Shown here: positions 6,866 through 41,367 of the stretch, piece after piece
Layout of the letters: every line of letters starts with the position of its first letter
Numbering within the stretch: position 1 is the stretch's first letter
Program-made: the position numbers and the translations under genes
NCBI GenBank assembly: GCA_023250035.1
Contig: JAHFBK010000002.1
Coordinates: 1-43,855 of the forward strand
Reading direction: 5' to 3'
DNA length: 43,855 nt
DNA from: Candidatus Dadabacteria bacterium
Lineage (GTDB): Bacteria; Desulfobacterota_D; UBA1144; Nemesobacterales; CSP1-2
Notes under the pieces: generated by a model
The model's input: only the letters and a program-made list of their open reading frames with translations
Database searches by the model: none
What the model was told of the DNA's origin: nothing

Positions 6866-6947
6866 GTAGGAGCGAACCTAGCCTGCAGTGAGCATTGTCG
6901 AACTGTGTTCGCCCCTTATCAGAGAAGACACACAGGTCTGCCCCTAC
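6866..6947. repeat. GTAG REP-like element with a nested 23-nt micro-element at 6881-6903
   Basis: gtaggagcgaaccta [gcctgcagtgagcattgtcgaac] tgtgttcgcccc ... ggtctgcccctac, between convergent genes. Confidence 0.75.
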
Positions 6948-10238: not shown

Positions 10239-10336
10239 TGCAAGATGCAAGAAGAATCATGTATCGTGAACGACACATCATATATCATTTTACTATTAGT
10301 GTAAATTCGTGCTAATTAGTGGTTAGGTAATTAATT

Positions 10337-16354: not shown

Positions 16355-16446
16355 GTAGGAGTGCCATCCCTTCGACCCTTCGACAAAGCTCAGGGCTCAG
16401 GACAGGGTTGGCGTGGGGCTGAGTCGCGGCTGGAAGCAACTCCTAC
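16355..16446. repeat. GTAG REP-like element with a doubly nested TTCGAC..GCTCA micro-element
   Basis: gtaggagtgcc ... ccttcgac-ccttcgacaaagctcaggg-ctcaggacagg ... gcaactcctac. Confidence 0.75.
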
Positions 16447-30999: not shown

Positions 31000-31082
31000 G
31001 TCATTGCGAGGAGCGATAGCGACGAAGCAATCCCCTCGGGATACAAGAGATTGCTTTGCTCCTTTTAGTCGCTCGCAATGAC
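31000..31082. repeat. GTCATTGCGAG...CTCGCAATGAC palindromic element
   Basis: Perfect 11-bp terminal IR plus inner aagcaatc/gattgctt stem. Confidence 0.85.
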
Positions 31083-34768: not shown

Positions 34769-37700
34769 ATGGGGGATGAATATTTACCTCAGAATCAAAC
34801 CACAAATGAAAAGATTTCTGTGAACGAAGGAATTGTAGGATTCGATTCACTTGAAACCCACTACAAACAAACGAAAGAAAAGTTACGTTTCCATGAGAGC
34901 CTAATCTACTCGATGACTGATGCCTCCCCGTTGGCCTTTTATGTTGTAGACAATCGTACCGACGAAATACTTTACTTTAACCATAGGTTCTGTGAAATAT
35001 GGGGCATCACCCATCTTGAGGAAGCCATGAGGAGGGGTGAGCTCAAGAATCAGGATATTGTTCCTTACTGTCTTCCTCTTGTTAAGAATGTTCCAGCATT
35101 CCTCGAATCATGCAAGCCGCTACAAAACGAGGAAGTGCGTTTCACTGTTGAGGATGAAATTCAATTCGTTGATGGTCGTACGATTAGACGAGTTTCCTCA
35201 CAAATTCGAGGCGAACTCGACCGTTACTTTGGTCGCCTATATATTTTTGAAGATGCCACAGATCGTAAACGTTTAGTTGATGAGCTTAGGAAAATAACCG
35301 AACGAATTATTAACTATCAAAAGGCACTCCTTGAATTAGCGAAGATGGATAACTCCGATCTTGAATTGACACTGAAAAGGGTAACTGAAGTAGGTTCGAA
35401 GACGTTAGGTGCAGAGCGTGTAAGTGTCTGGCTTTTCAACGAAGACCATTCAGAAATTGTCTGTAAAGATTTATACAAAATGAGCGAAAATGTTCATGAA
35501 AAGGGATTAAGGCTTCAAGCCAAGGATTACCCTAGGTATTTTCATGCATTGGAAGAGAGCCGCACCTTGGCGGCGAATGATGCCTTAACCGATCCTCGTA
35601 CAAGTGAATACACCGAAGGGTATTTAAAACCATATAGAATTTCATCGATGATGGATGTGCCTATTCGTGTTGATGGAAAAGTTGTAGGTATTGTTTGTCA
35701 CGAGCACACAGGACCGATGAGAGAGTGGGTACTAGAAGAACAAAACTTTGCAGCCTCGATTGCCGATGTGGGTTCTCTCGCTTTGGAGGCTTCAGAGCGG
35801 AATCGGATTGAAGAGGCACTACGAAAGAGTGAAGAAAGGTACCGTGCTTTGTACGAAGATAACCCGTCTATGTACTTTACTGTGGATCTAGAAGGAAAAG
35901 TTTTATCAGTCAACCTATTTGGGGCAGAACAACTTGGTTACAAGGCTCATGAGTTAGTTGGGCAATCCGTTCTTATGATTTTCCATCCGGATGACCGAGA
36001 AGGGGTACTGAAGCAAATGAGGGTTTGTTTACAGAACCCCAACCAGCTATTCCAATGGGAATTTCGCGAGATCAGAAAGGACGGCGGTATCTTGTGGGGG
36101 AAAGAGGCTGCCCGTGCAGTACAGGGTGCTGAAGGCGGTGTAGTTGTTCTTATCTCTTGTGAGGACATTACCGAGCGGAAACGGATGGAGGAGGCTCTCC
36201 GAAAAGCTAAGTATGATCTAGAAATAAAAGTAGAGGAACGTACTTCTGAATTAAGGAAATCTAATGAGCGACTATTAGCTGAGATCAGTGACCGCAAGCG
36301 GACGGAAGAAGACTTAAATAATAGAAATAGGGACCTAGAAATTCTAAATGCTATCACTCAAGCGGTACATCAGTTCCTTGCCCCGAAGGAGGTCTATAGG
36401 GTTGCATTGGATAAAGTTATTGAACTAGAGAATGTAGACCTAGCATGTATTTATCTGGTTGACGAAGCTAGGAATGAAGCAGTAATTCAGGACCAAAGGA
36501 ACATTCCAGAGTGGTTTATCAAGAGAGCCGGGAGGATCCCATGCCCTAAGGGTGTAACCTGGAGGGTCATAAATACGGGAAACATAGTAAACGTTAAAAA
36601 CGCTCAGGAAGACCCTGATGTAGGACCCGCAGGACGGGAACTTGGTTTTCGGGGCATGCTTGGGATACCTATAACCCTTGAGAGTAAAACCATAGGAGTA
36701 ATATGGCTTATTAGCTATAAAGAGTATCTTTTCACCCGGAGTGAAGAGGAGCTACTTTTATCTATTTGCAGTCAGACATCCATAGCTATAAGTAAGGCAA
36801 GACTCTATGAAAGAGAATTTAATCAAAGGAAGAGGATAGAAGCTCTACAGGTAGTTTCTCAATCTGTTACTTCCAAACTGGATTACAGGAGTGTCCTTCA
36901 GGATGTTGTTGAAAATACTAACAGTTTTATGGGTTCAAGATTCTCGATCATAGCCCTTCAAGAAGGTGATTACTATATCCCGAAGGCTGTAGCCGGTGAT
37001 GACGAGGGTCTAAGGGAGGTTATCCAAATAAGCCCTGATCCAGAGAATATGTGGGGAAGGGGACGTGGTGGGGAGTGCCTACGCACAAAAACCCCTATAG
37101 TTGCAAACGACCTAAGGAATGCCCCGCCACTAATATGGCGAACTGAGCTTATTAAAAGAGGAATCCTATCTGTTGCTATTGTGCCACTTATCATTAAGGG
37201 GGAGGTAAAGGGGCTTTTACTGACCTACTCTCAAGAGCCCTATGCCTTTGATAAAGACAAAACAAATCTCCTTACCTCTTTTGCTAATCAAGCAGCTATT
37301 GCTATTGAAAACGCCAGACTCTATGAAGAAACTAAAATGCAGACCGAGGCTCTCAAGGAGAGTGAGGAACGTTATCGTAGTCTCTTTGAAACTGCTCCCG
37401 AAATCATTTTCAGCGTTTCTCCCGACGGAATGATTGCTTCACTGAATCCTGCGTCAGAAAGGATTACAGGGTGGTTACACAAAGATGTCATTGGACAGCC
37501 TTTCATATCTTTTATACATCCTGATGACCTGCCTTTGGTTATGGAGAAGTTTCAGCAAGTCTTGCAGGGAGAGGCGATACCGCCCTTTGAATTACGTGTT
37601 TTATCTCAATCTGGTGAGTTTCTGATTATAGAAGCTGTTGGCTCAACGCAAATTAAAGATGGACAAGTGGTGGGTGTTTTGGGAATCGCTCGCAATATCA

Positions 37701-39802
37701 CTGAGCGTAAACGTATGGAAGAGGCGCTAAGAGAAAGCGAAGAAAGGTTAAGTGCAATGTTTAATAATACACCAAATGTAGCTGTCCAAGGTTATGATTT
37801 AGAAGGAAGGGTTTTGTACTGGAACAAGGCTTCAGAAAAGATATTCGGCTATACAGAGAAAGAAGCATTGGGAAAAACCCTCGGCCATTTAATATTCGAC
37901 GAGGAAAATACAAAAAGGTTTCATTCAGTTATCAAGGATGTGAACGAATCAAATAAGCCTCATGGTCCCACTGAATGGATTTTTAGAAATGGGGAAGGAG
38001 TCGAACGCGTTGTTCAATCTACATTATTCACAATACATTCTTCAGAGGGTAAAAAGGATTTCATTTGCATGAATATTGACATCACTGACCGCAAGCGGGC
38101 GGAGGAAGCACTTAAAGAAAACTTTGCCCAATTATCCAAAAAGAACCGGTACGAGACGATAATTAGTACTGTAACTAGAAGCGTTCATCAGACGATAAAT
38201 CTACAAGATGTCCTTGAAAATGCGGTTGAGGCTATGAGTAAGAACATAGATGGTGCAGACAATGTTTCGATCTATCTAGTAGAAGGTGCAGAAGCGGATT
38301 CGACAGGCTCACCACAGGCGGTTATCAAGTCTTATAGGGGCTATTCTGAAGCCTTTATAGGGAAGGTTAGAAGAATTCCATATCCAAAAGGCTTTACCTG
38401 GAAAACGATAATCGAGGGAAAGCCTTTGTATTGTCCTGATGTAGACCAGGATACTGTTATTGGACCAGCCGGAAGGGAAGTAGGAACAAAGAGCTATGCA
38501 TCTATGCCTATTCAGTTTGAAGGCAAGACGATAGGATGCATAAATATCAATTCTTTAGAAAAGGATGCTTTCGATGAAGAAGAGTTAAAGCTATTAGAGA
38601 TTGTTGCGCATCAGATAGAGATAGCAATCACTAATGCCCAGCAGGCAGAGTTGCTATATCAGGCTAAAGAGGAACTAGAACTACGTGTACAGGAGCGAAC
38701 ACAGGAGTTATCTGAGATAAATGAAGAACTTAGGAAGGAGATTGCAGAGCGCAACAGGGTAGAGGAGGAAATCAGACAAACCCAATCATTCCTTAATTCC
38801 GTCGTCGAAAACATTCCAGATATGATATTTGTCAAGGACGCCAAGGATCTCAGGTTTGTGCGTTTCAACAAAGCAGGTGAGGAGCTACTTGGTTATTCGA
38901 GGGGAAATCTAATTGGCAAGACCGACCATGATTTTTTCCCGAAAGAGGAAGCAGATTTCTTCACATCTAAAGATCGGGAAGTGTTGGAAGGTTCCAAACT
39001 CCATGACATCCCCGAGGAACCGATACATACGAGGAATAAGGGAAGAAGAATACTGCATACCAAAAAAATTCCAATTTTCAATGCGGATGGTAAGCCACGT
39101 TATCTTTTGGGCATTTCAGAAGATATCACCGAGCGAAAGCGAGTGGAAAAGCAAATTAGGTCATCATTAGAAGAGAAAGAGGTGCTACTAAAGGAAATTC
39201 ACCATAGGGTAAAAAACAATTTGCAGGTCATTTCAAGTCTACTCGACCTTCAATCTGAATATGTTAAGGGTAAAAAGACTCGCCAGTTGTTCCATGAAAC
39301 TCAGAATCGTGTAAGGGCAATTGCACATATACATGAACGGTTTTATCAATCCAAAGATCTAGCAAGGATTGATTTTGCTGAATACATACGGCATCTAGGT
39401 AATTATTTGTTTCAATCATACGGGGTTGACCCGAATTTTATCAAACTGAAGGTTAATGTCCAAGATGTGGTGCTTGATGTTAATACTGCTATTCCTTGTG
39501 GCTTGATAATAAATGAACTTATCTCAAATTCATTAAAACACGCCTTCAGAAAACGTAAGAAAGGAGAAATCTGTATCGATTTTCACTCTGACATTAAACG
39601 CGCAGATAGCCATAGGCATCGTCTATACACTATGACCGTAAGAGATAACGGTGTTGGTTTCCCAAAGGATCTGGACTTCCGAAACACCGAATCATTAGGT
39701 CTTCAATTAGTAAACGCTTTAACAAATCAGATTGGAGGTTCTATAGGGTTAAATAGAAGATATGGTACTGGTTTTAAGATTACGTTTAGTAATCAGTTGT
39801 AA
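34769..39802 (+). CDS. Soluble multi-sensor histidine kinase: 5 PAS, 4 GAF, HisKA_2 and HATPase
   Basis: Five D/N-I/A-T-E/D-RKR PAS termini, GAF repeats, LLKEIHHRVKNNLQ, NELISNSLKHAF, VRDNGVG, SLGLQLV; SD aggagg; no TM segment. Confidence 0.93.
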   Translation: MGDEYLPQNQTTNEKISVNEGIVGFDSLETHYKQTKEKLRFHESLIYSMTDASPLAFYVVDNRTDEILYFNHRFCEIWGITHLEEAMRRGELKNQDIVPYCLPLVKNVPAFLESCKPLQNEEVRFTVEDEIQFVDGRTIRRVSSQIRGELDRYFGRLYIFEDATDRKRLVDELRKITERIINYQKALLELAKMDNSDLELTLKRVTEVGSKTLGAERVSVWLFNEDHSEIVCKDLYKMSENVHEKGLRLQAKDYPRYFHALEESRTLAANDALTDPRTSEYTEGYLKPYRISSMMDVPIRVDGKVVGIVCHEHTGPMREWVLEEQNFAASIADVGSLALEASERNRIEEALRKSEERYRALYEDNPSMYFTVDLEGKVLSVNLFGAEQLGYKAHELVGQSVLMIFHPDDREGVLKQMRVCLQNPNQLFQWEFREIRKDGGILWGKEAARAVQGAEGGVVVLISCEDITERKRMEEALRKAKYDLEIKVEERTSELRKSNERLLAEISDRKRTEEDLNNRNRDLEILNAITQAVHQFLAPKEVYRVALDKVIELENVDLACIYLVDEARNEAVIQDQRNIPEWFIKRAGRIPCPKGVTWRVINTGNIVNVKNAQEDPDVGPAGRELGFRGMLGIPITLESKTIGVIWLISYKEYLFTRSEEELLLSICSQTSIAISKARLYEREFNQRKRIEALQVVSQSVTSKLDYRSVLQDVVENTNSFMGSRFSIIALQEGDYYIPKAVAGDDEGLREVIQISPDPENMWGRGRGGECLRTKTPIVANDLRNAPPLIWRTELIKRGILSVAIVPLIIKGEVKGLLLTYSQEPYAFDKDKTNLLTSFANQAAIAIENARLYEETKMQTEALKESEERYRSLFETAPEIIFSVSPDGMIASLNPASERITGWLHKDVIGQPFISFIHPDDLPLVMEKFQQVLQGEAIPPFELRVLSQSGEFLIIEAVGSTQIKDGQVVGVLGIARNITERKRMEEALRESEERLSAMFNNTPNVAVQGYDLEGRVLYWNKASEKIFGYTEKEALGKTLGHLIFDEENTKRFHSVIKDVNESNKPHGPTEWIFRNGEGVERVVQSTLFTIHSSEGKKDFICMNIDITDRKRAEEALKENFAQLSKKNRYETIISTVTRSVHQTINLQDVLENAVEAMSKNIDGADNVSIYLVEGAEADSTGSPQAVIKSYRGYSEAFIGKVRRIPYPKGFTWKTIIEGKPLYCPDVDQDTVIGPAGREVGTKSYASMPIQFEGKTIGCININSLEKDAFDEEELKLLEIVAHQIEIAITNAQQAELLYQAKEELELRVQERTQELSEINEELRKEIAERNRVEEEIRQTQSFLNSVVENIPDMIFVKDAKDLRFVRFNKAGEELLGYSRGNLIGKTDHDFFPKEEADFFTSKDREVLEGSKLHDIPEEPIHTRNKGRRILHTKKIPIFNADGKPRYLLGISEDITERKRVEKQIRSSLEEKEVLLKEIHHRVKNNLQVISSLLDLQSEYVKGKKTRQLFHETQNRVRAIAHIHERFYQSKDLARIDFAEYIRHLGNYLFQSYGVDPNFIKLKVNVQDVVLDVNTAIPCGLIINELISNSLKHAFRKRKKGEICIDFHSDIKRADSHRHRLYTMTVRDNGVGFPKDLDFRNTESLGLQLVNALTNQIGGSIGLNRRYGTGFKITFSNQL
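38298..38319 (+). repeat. TTCGAC..GCTCA micro-element inserted in frame in the kinase
   Basis: attcgacaggctcaccacaggc resembles the reverse complement of 6881-6903 (gttcgacaatgctcactgcaggc); gcgg recurs 24 nt apart. Confidence 0.7.
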
Positions 39803-39894: not shown

Positions 39895-41367
39895 TTGCAA
39901 CTGGGGAGTAAACAAATAGCTAAAATCATGGTTGTTGAAGATGAAAGTATTGTCGCTAAGGACATACAAAACAGATTGAAGAGGTTGGGATATAAAGTTA
40001 ATGATATTGTGTCTTCCGGAGAGGAAGCTATTAGTAAGGCAGCCGAGACGCAGCCGGATTTAGTACTCATGGACATTGTGTTAAAGGGAGAAATTGACGG
40101 TATCGAGGCTGCTAAACAGATTAATACACTTTTTAATGTCCCAATAGTGTATCTTACTGCTTATGCTGATGATAGCACAATTCAACGAGCTAAAATAACG
40201 GAACCATTTGGATATATTCTTAAGCCATTTCAAACAAAAGAATTACACTCCGCTATTCAGATAGCTCTATACAAGCATGAAATAGAAAAAAAATTAAAAG
40301 AGAAGAAAAGCTGGTTTGCTACAACACTTAAAAGTATAAATGACGCCGTGATTCTCACCGATACAAGAGGATCAGTAACTTATATGAACGTCTCAGCAGA
40401 AGCGCTGACTGGTTGGAGATGGGAAGATACTATAGGTAAAGATCTGGGAGAAGTATTTCATATCATAAACCAAGAAACACGTACAATAATTGAAAACCCT
40501 GTGACAAAGGCGATTCTTGAAACCCTGGTAGTCAGTCCCCAGAGTCATATAATTCTAATTTCCAAGGATAGAAGAGAAACAATAATTTCGTTAAGTGCCG
40601 CTCCCATTAGGGATGATGTAGGAAAAATCAAAGGTGTCGTTTTTGTTTTCCGTGAAGTAATTGATCACAAAAGAGCGGAAACCGAATTTCTTAAATCTCA
40701 AAAACTTGAATCAAGGATGACTAATGAGTTTAAAAATGCCCATATTAGACTGATGATCGTAACTCCTTCCTCTGTTGTTCGTCAGGGGGTACGCAAGATG
40801 CTTGAATCCGAAAAATATATAGAGATAATAGCAGAGATTTCAAATTACCAAGATATATTATCAATCATTGAACAAAATAAGCCAGATCTTTTGTTTGTTG
40901 ATAAGACACTACCTAGTCTAAATATGTTGGAAATCTTAAGCTCAATCCGTGATAAAAGCCCTACGACAAAAGTACTTTTATTGCTACATAGCTTTGATGA
41001 AGATTTTATTATGAATGCTTTATCTTTGGGTGCACGTGGTTACTTAACAGATACGTCAAACGCGGATCAGTTTATTCAAGCAGTTAGGGCTTTGAGTAAA
41101 GAGGAGATTTGGGGGGAGGTCGAAATTATAACAAAGCTCCTAACTCGACTTTTACATTCTAAAAAAGGTAGTTCTATAGTACCAAGACCACACCTTACAA
41201 AAAGAGAAGACGAGGTTGTAAAGTTAATCATCCAGGGATATTCTAACAAGCAAGTTTCTGAGAAGCTATTTATAAGTGAGAAAACAGTAAAGTCCCACTT
41301 GAATAACGTGTATAAAAAGCTCGGATTAAGCAATAGACTTCAACTTGTCGCGGACTTCCTTGGCTAG
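39895..41367 (+). CDS. Response regulator REC-PAS-REC-LuxR HTH
   Basis: VVEDE..LVLMDI..YLTA..KPF; PAS domain; second REC with LFVD; LTKREDEV..GYSNK..LFISEKTVKSH; TTG after SD ggagg. Confidence 0.9.
   Translation: MQLGSKQIAKIMVVEDESIVAKDIQNRLKRLGYKVNDIVSSGEEAISKAAETQPDLVLMDIVLKGEIDGIEAAKQINTLFNVPIVYLTAYADDSTIQRAKITEPFGYILKPFQTKELHSAIQIALYKHEIEKKLKEKKSWFATTLKSINDAVILTDTRGSVTYMNVSAEALTGWRWEDTIGKDLGEVFHIINQETRTIIENPVTKAILETLVVSPQSHIILISKDRRETIISLSAAPIRDDVGKIKGVVFVFREVIDHKRAETEFLKSQKLESRMTNEFKNAHIRLMIVTPSSVVRQGVRKMLESEKYIEIIAEISNYQDILSIIEQNKPDLLFVDKTLPSLNMLEILSSIRDKSPTTKVLLLLHSFDEDFIMNALSLGARGYLTDTSNADQFIQAVRALSKEEIWGEVEIITKLLTRLLHSKKGSSIVPRPHLTKREDEVVKLIIQGYSNKQVSEKLFISEKTVKSHLNNVYKKLGLSNRLQLVADFLG

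Follow-up and report, generated by a model that had tools for sequence, protein, structure and literature searches.

In a 43,855-nt stretch of DNA from a Candidatus Dadabacteria bacterium (GenBank assembly GCA_023250035.1, contig JAHFBK010000002.1, positions 1 to 43,855 of the forward strand; hereafter, the window), a gene encoding a 1677-aa sensor kinase (34769-39802, + strand) contains an in-frame insert of 24 nt. On balance, we lean towards reading this insert as a copy of a genome-wide repeat family, with a small GIY-YIG nuclease resembling UPF0213 proteins as its likely mobiliser in trans. An initial annotation, made from the letters of the window, had proposed that a very small nonautonomous element is adding protein sequence here. 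This is borne out by an orthologous site that is empty, by a 40-fold over-representation of the core motif in the genome, by in-frame insertions in seven of eight genes compared, and by the presence and absence of copies in relatives.

The sequence at 38294-38321 agrees with the one first quoted, which was described as a ~22-nt repeat lying in frame in the kinase. It does lie in frame, but the unit measures 24 nt (38295-38318, +), in the translated context IYLVEGAEADSTGSPQAVI. Depending on the placement of the junction, the eight residues added, in what is predicted to be a surface loop, are DSTGSPQA, as originally read, or ADSTGSPQ. The unit belongs to the subtype Y-GGA-TTCGAC-NN-GCTCA-CCA-CAGG, with the conserved core TTCGAC-N2-GCTCA at 38299-38311 (+), and its host is a GAF domain (Pfam GAF_2; aa 1144-1287; 38198-38629, +) of an intact PAS/GAF HisKA_2 kinase. 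A single-sequence AlphaFold model of the domain (mean pLDDT 70; ~55 at the insert) predicts a longer first beta hairpin with DSTGS at its tip, and the added peptide is likely near-neutral.

When this GAF domain was used as a query against 41 related genomes, most homologues were found to be 426 nt long, compared with 450 nt in the window. In G002, a genome of the same genus, contig C146 is syntenic with the window (74-79% identity) over a block that spans the HPPK gene, the kinase and the response regulator, and its orthologous GAF domain, 86% identical, reads YFVEGREAVI. It is eight residues shorter and provides the empty site that the initial annotation had suggested seeking among orthologues. 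A paralogous turn in the same protein, IYLVDEARNEAVI (36449-36487, +), is present and free of the element as was noted, but it cannot stand in for an empty site because it is of the DEARNE type, a different GAF subtype. In a codon tree calculated without the loop columns (three long-branch rows of 37 were left out), the filled window domain (L001) and the empty G002 domain (L002) are sisters with support 99/93. Contigs of runs X4, X5 and X14 (three studies) carry nearly identical filled alleles with no 24-nt gap. No RNA dataset appears among the listed sequencing runs. In X5 and X14, the filled module (window 38096-38800) is 97-98% identical yet joined to different upstream sequence, from which it appears that the domain, together with its insert, has been shuffled between kinases.

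The proposed genome scan for TTCGAC-N2-4-GCTCA returned 85 copies in the assembly that contains the window (G000; 2.39 Mb, 89% complete) against ~0.73 expected per spacing, or ~2 in total, with the two words of the core taken independently; the reversed pattern matched twice. The window itself has three matches (0.05 expected; 0 of 100 shuffles reach three). The two besides the kinase copy are the intergenic elements whose cores had already been matched to it. The first is a 24-nt unit with CAG/CTG arms and a CAGG tail (6882-6905, −), embedded in a GTAG-type repetitive extragenic palindromic (REP) sequence starting at 6866. The second is a nested 39-nt unit (16368-16406, +) in which one core sits within the loop of another (24+15 nt), embedded in a GTAGGAG...CTCCTAC palindrome at 16355-16446. 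Thus, contrary to the two outcomes that had been named in advance as fatal to the idea, orthologues do not all carry a loop of this length and the motif is over-represented.

Each 24-nt unit consists of a 3-nt arm, TTCGAC, a loop of 2-4 nt, GCTCA, a complementary 3-nt arm, and a short tail. The arms pair at position 1 in 77, at position 2 in 78, and at position 3 in 62 of the 85 copies (shuffle maxima 54, 57 and 52, respectively), with C-G, G-C, A-T and T-A pairs all in use, and position 4 outward is at chance level. An alignment of 13 units has 88.5% of its cells paired and a covariation of 0.705; none of 500 shuffles and no slid control was as high. By tail, the G000 copies divide into RCAGG (32), nested inner units (16), CGAACGG (9), CGAAG (7), TAAACT (5), ACG (4) and others (12). 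Copies nest in one another's loop and also lie within other hairpin repeats. No Rfam family matched at gathering score in the window plus 12 repeat-bearing loci, and a plasmid blastn search with the insert gave matches at chance level only.

RCAGG-tailed units are 24 nt long and mostly have a 3-nt loop, and the kinase copy has a 2-nt loop and an A ahead of the core. The extra A as a frame-restoring mutation is ruled out: this is a fixed subtype, and 39 of its 73 full-flank contexts lack an open frame. The exact subtype was found in at least 120 metagenome stretches; the 80 loci read contain 83 distinct contexts, with a pyrimidine as first base throughout. In the other 34 of the 73 full-flank contexts, it lies within a frame open over 443 nt, and the peptides encoded in open frames include DSTxSP (15), FDxLT (8) and VVSxSN (8). 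Several further arrangements were seen. Head-to-tail 24-nt units in an open frame encode repeated DSTSSPQA at L402:301-371 and in L438. At G000:C74:12432 / L135, nested and tandem copies directly follow the start codon and form a new N-terminal peptide, with one unit more in G001 than in G000. A 4-nt-loop subtype (G000:C36, C45, C137, C155, C184) is specific for YCA/TC insertion sites, has a TC repeat at each end, often contains a nested RCAGG unit, and encodes peptides such as DxREPFDxAQDRxQSNDE. Copies are strongly asymmetric between strands in G040 (6/31), G077 (24/62) and G078 (20/66), and G028 has long same-strand runs; this is possibly tied to replication or gene direction. In G000, 56 of 85 copies share a replication strand by third-position skew, a measure that follows gene strand (r 0.6), and 49 of 85 by whole-contig skew.

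Comparison with close relatives indicates that the unit moves. From the ~114 of 119 exact copies listed for G001 and G002 that the mapping took in, 51 could be placed by both flanks on G000 (identity between G001 and G000 is 88-98% at most of the mapped sites). Fourteen are too diverged to judge; of the remaining 37 sites, 25 are common to G000 and 12 are absent there (two of these mis-mapped by eye). Clean presence/absence units of 24-25 nt occur at L117, L135, L174 and L178, and L165 and L180 are nested +15 cases. We also compared each of eight G000 genes that have a copy with two to five homologues. Relative to empty homologues, seven have an in-frame insertion: PriA, a DHH protein, a GT4 protein, a ribonucleotide reductase, a class I tRNA synthetase (Ile/Leu/Met/Val), a protein without a Pfam hit, and an FAD oxidase, the last with a 39-nt nested copy and the others with 24 nt. 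For the eighth gene, all homologues are filled. Insertions in genes are solely in multiples of three nucleotides. At PriA, the nearest relative, G001, is empty and the more distant G002 and G004 hold worn copies, so losses also occur.

Empty sites lack the arms, so the arms come with the donor element, and copying of the arms from the target is ruled out by the same observation. The initial annotation had quoted a gcgg direct repeat around the insert. The sequence is as quoted, but its interpretation as a target-site duplication fails: among 76 nontandem copies of the kinase-insert subtype, 30 have no junction repeat, 33 have one of 1 nt, 5 one of 2 nt, 6 one of 3 nt and 2 one of 5 nt, so that it is 0-1 nt in 63 of 76, with no fixed target duplication and with none in most of the gene pairs. 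The next target base is C for 7 of the 8 elements that begin with C and for 22 of the 68 that begin with T (p 0.004), a difference that points to the junction slipping by one base. Given these statistics, gcgg is one slipped base plus chance, mostly chance microhomology. Only 20 of the 85 copies lie within open reading frames (ORFs) of at least 200 aa, where 54 would be expected, and none of the seven 25-nt copies does, so frame-breaking arrivals are likely purged. There is a modest genome-wide preference for hairpin hosts: by motif list, 29 of 65 non-ORF copies are in such hosts versus 18% in the control, and inverted repeats flank 15 of 65 versus 15%.

The same GAF turn has been occupied repeatedly. 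In G004 (L003), it carries the same core, with the element identical and third positions elsewhere only 54% identical. Among other homologues, L030 has a double insert with one unit nested in the other, L091 and L092 have worn copies in forward orientation, L029, L093 and L005 have worn copies in reverse orientation, and L017 and L024 have two loop extensions unrelated to the element. Independent arrivals are favoured, although not proven. The competing history, in which the element arrived once long ago and empty alleles such as that of G002 are precise losses via a short flanking repeat, we consider doubtful but worth carrying forward. Approximately unbiased (AU) tests leave a single clade unrejected (p 0.18 for L001+L095; p 0.051 for all five forward-filled GAFs), and the pattern at PriA, empty in the nearest relative and worn in two more distant ones, is what such losses would leave. 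However, across the element plus the next two codons, all 8 third positions agree between L001 and L003/L095, against the 54% found elsewhere, the tree needs three changes to account for the filled forward rows, which come out as one group in 0% of 200 bootstrap replicates, and the turn also holds inserts of opposite orientation. The question concerns the history of this site only, and either answer is compatible with a nuclease-mobilised repeat.

A candidate enzyme emerged from the short GIY-YIG genes of relatives. One subfamily has the motif alongside in 6 of 6 cases, and the Ssn-like genes have GTCA-type hairpins. We searched species-level GTDB genomes with the subfamily and took the best 80 of 596 loci. 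Among these 80, 71 have the relaxed motif up- or downstream of the gene, 58 of them on both sides, and the hosts are Desulfobacterota-like bacteria, Binatia, Gamma- and Betaproteobacteria, Nitrospirota, Cyanobacteria and others. Most of the flanking motifs are in inverted orientation, their CGAACGG tails pointing away from the gene, and the motif density is 4.8 per kb near the gene versus 0.11 farther off. In a nuclease tree that included every fourth of the 80 loci, the clade sits on a long supported branch, with 24 of 29 rows inside it flanked and 3 of 26 outside. The protein has ~95 residues and is stand-alone, and its invariant residues Y6, Y16, R26 and E63 are of the GIY-YIG catalytic type. 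Its nearest solved structures are the UPF0213 proteins 1zg2 and 1ywl (E 3e-21 for a profile query of the clade versus E 0.014 for a single-sequence query with an SRM-flanked protein). For this protein, ESM Atlas returned GIY-YIG clusters only, and NCBIfam has no model that fits the clade. A literature search found no paper linking the motif or UPF0213 proteins to repeats, although the supplements of PMC11893778 and PMC3733652 may list the motif or the clade.

Two loci deserve separate mention. L199, a 1.7-kb contig labelled Nitrososphaera, encodes a nuclease 96% identical to that of G001; it is probably mis-binned, the other option being transfer to an archaeon. In L050 (G034), the core flanking a sister GIY-YIG gene is a TTCGGC variant, a hint that nuclease and motif co-vary.

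From this arrangement we infer mobilisation of the repeat by the GIY-YIG nuclease, which might proceed as follows. The enzyme would recognise the motif on single-stranded DNA, probably as the strand TGAGC..GTCGAA, which could form tandem G.A pairs (such pairs may be possible on the TGAG..CGAA strand), and would nick near the tail end of the unit, much as SsnA cuts at its own hairpin. Host repair or template switching could then insert the oligonucleotide, whether freed or copied, wherever single-stranded DNA is exposed, after which frame-keeping copies in tolerant loops would survive and others would be purged. A wider claim would hold that the UPF0213-like clade mobilises a 24-nt family across phyla, about the smallest mobile DNA, which is pasted without target duplication into single-stranded DNA loops and, with five of six frames open, acts as a steady source of eight-residue loop insertions in proteins of housekeeping and signalling, the clade thereby being the missing enzyme for repeats of the small dispersed repeat (SDR) type. 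We advance this tentatively and think it more probably wrong than right.

A number of observations weigh against mobilisation by the nuclease. Across 99 genomes of the phylum, with at least 10 copies counted as repeat-rich, the clade is present in only 6 of the 25 repeat-rich genomes. That none of the 74 repeat-poor genomes has it speaks for a link, but the p value of 0.0002 is overstated since kin are not independent. The linked nuclease that the initial annotation had suggested looking for exists elsewhere, at the loci described above, but was not found in G000 (89% complete), nor was the clade found in 18 further repeat-rich relatives, among them G028 (160 copies, 98% complete, 20 contigs) and G007 (40 copies, 99% complete, 9 contigs). 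G000, in which no such gene was found, nonetheless has copies that are missing from G001 or G002, and no nuclease ORF lies between the members of its 11 copy pairs with spacings of 150-1500 nt. The nuclease-flanking form is tailed CGAACGG and the kinase insert CAGG. The syntenic place of the G001 nuclease cassette in G000 is a heptamer array, not a clean empty site; as the cassette is missing there, it comes and goes. The unit is no more stable than shuffles in RNA folding, and DNA folding is weak, with strands even (43/85); given that the arms covary nevertheless, the stem is short and probably protein-read or noncanonical. Finally, we know of no GIY-YIG nuclease that has been shown to transpose anything. 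For SsnA, the available text of PMC11893778 describes only cutting and lowered transformation as demonstrated.

These points lend some weight to a mode of spread that needs no enzyme of its own, in which stalled forks give rise to template switching or short-patch gene conversion and the nuclease, recognising the motif, acts only as an SsnA-like filter on incoming DNA. Consistent with this, 19 of the 25 repeat-rich genomes lack the clade, target duplication is missing, nesting and the tandem 24-nt arrays (L402, L438) suit copy-choice events, and the demonstrated role of SsnA is restriction of transforming DNA. We regard it as unlikely, however, because exact unit ends recur at unrelated targets with little homology, which argues for an enzyme-defined boundary, and because all six genomes with the clade are repeat-rich. 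Transposition by a REP-associated tyrosine transposase (RAYT; Y1, HUH), or by another hairpin nuclease, is more improbable still. G000 does have eight Y1_Tnp matches, both intergenic window copies lie within GTAG-type REPs, and the lack of target duplication is typical of HUH transposition (as in IS200/IS605). However, a transposase link of the kind initially suggested did not hold up: the relaxed motif lies within ~500 nt of 4 of 30 Y1 loci (one with several copies), against 71 of 80 for the GIY-YIG clade, and the element has no GTAG tag. That the eight residues are an ordinary loop extension resembling the intergenic motif by chance can be set aside with near certainty: the turn tolerates changes in length, as its two unrelated extensions show, but the empty orthologue, the 85 genomic copies against ~2 expected, and the match of 23 specified bases to a subtype known from 83 other contexts rule it out.

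The rest of the window contains other repeats and the downstream partner of the kinase, a response regulator at 39895-41367. Palindromes of the REP type, GTAGGGGC/GTAGGAG, occur at 135, 6866-6947, 15337 and 16355-16446. An inverted pair of GTCATTGCGAG hairpins lies at 31000-31082, between secA and the gene for a MoxR-like ATPase; this hairpin type adjoins Ssn-like GIY-YIG genes in relatives. At 2645-2732, there is an AT-rich palindrome with CCACAGAG..CAC ends, another repeat type, for which the Rfam matches are spurious microRNA. Heptamer arrays (TGCATC-like, CACGA-like) are found at 10249 and ~32430, and at G000:C220:1721-1822, and the 25-nt subtype of the element is frequently located within such arrays.

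How repeats of 21-27 bases move has been an open question since the cyanobacterial SDRs were described. Their origin is likewise listed as unresolved in the available portion of PMC3116915. The 24-nt element offers defined ends, many filled/empty pairs and a candidate enzyme of ~95 residues, making the question testable in vitro. If mobilisation by the nuclease is true, it would assign a role to some of the uncharacterised UPF0213 proteins and add a second class of candidate sequence-specific single-stranded DNA nucleases next to Ssn. It would also explain the recurring short inserts (DSTxSPQ, FDxLTT, PVVSLSN, LRxGSGQ) that disturb alignments and annotation in environmental genomes.

The initial annotation had likened the element to the Rickettsia palindromic elements (RPEs), only much shorter. 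Shorter it is, but the closer analogues are the SDRs and the Ssn/NTS system. The eight Nostocaceae SDR families (SDR1-8), reportedly described by Elhai and colleagues in 2008, are said to be 21-27 nt long and mobile without coding capacity, and to insert in frame into genes, with predicted structure conserved and sequence varying. The 24- and 25-nt units fall within that size range and, like SDRs as so described, show filled and empty orthologous sites, including in-frame ones in genes. The core is present on a Tolypothrix plasmid, and one cyanobacterial metagenome-assembled genome (G104) has 138 copies. SDRs are, according to the available text of PMC5861425, reported solely from Nostocaceae, in contrast to the 24-nt family, which spans many phyla, and no linked nuclease is mentioned for them in the available parts of the citing papers PMC4390886, PMC5861425 and PMC3116915. 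Core copies embedded in HIP1, between its third and fourth base as is the mark of SDR5, were found with two exact patterns in 0 of 101 cyanobacterial genomes, which rules out identity with SDR5 as tested; one near-fit lies on the Tolypothrix plasmid.

Compared with RPEs, which are palindromic and 105-146 nt long (PMC3184786, as far as available), the unit here is 24 nt with no stable fold and a covarying stem of only 4 bp. It resembles RPEs and the intragenic CGTC/GTAG REPs in that in-frame repeats reside in working genes, many of them for replication or repair (available text of PMC3733652), but it is CAGG-tailed and has neither a GTAG nor a CGTC tag. As in REPIN/RAYT systems, an enzyme gene is bracketed by its own short repeats, which also occur as dispersed doublets (PMC3116915, in the part available); here, however, the enzyme is a GIY-YIG nuclease and not an HUH Y1 transposase, and the mobile unit is a single 24-nt copy. 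Miniature inverted-repeat transposable elements differ in that no fixed target-site duplication is seen here (0-1 nt junction repeats in 63 of 76).

Ssn GIY-YIG nucleases cut single-stranded DNA beside flanking hairpins, with mobility merely hypothesised, and NTS is a perfect palindrome that is rarely intragenic (2%), according to the available text of Chenal et al. 2025 (PMC11893778). To judge from that text, the likeness lies in a ~95-aa single-domain GIY-YIG gene between inverted, dispersed 20-30-nt motifs with an unpaired tail; both-side flanking in 58 and flanking on at least one side in 71 of the 80 nuclease loci fit this, although the arrangement was not found in the window or in G000. 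In contrast to the 2% given there for NTS, about a quarter of the 24-nt copies are in ORFs. The nuclease itself forms a separate long-branch clade, nearest to UPF0213 structures and apart from the SRM-flanked proteins, which points away from cd10448, the family of the Ssn nucleases. Identity of the repeat with SRM was rejected, as none of the 85 copies overlaps any of the six SRM matches in G000 or comes within 100 nt of one. The repeat thus works like an SDR and is arranged like Ssn/NTS, and, by the SDR5 and SRM comparisons, it appears to belong to neither.

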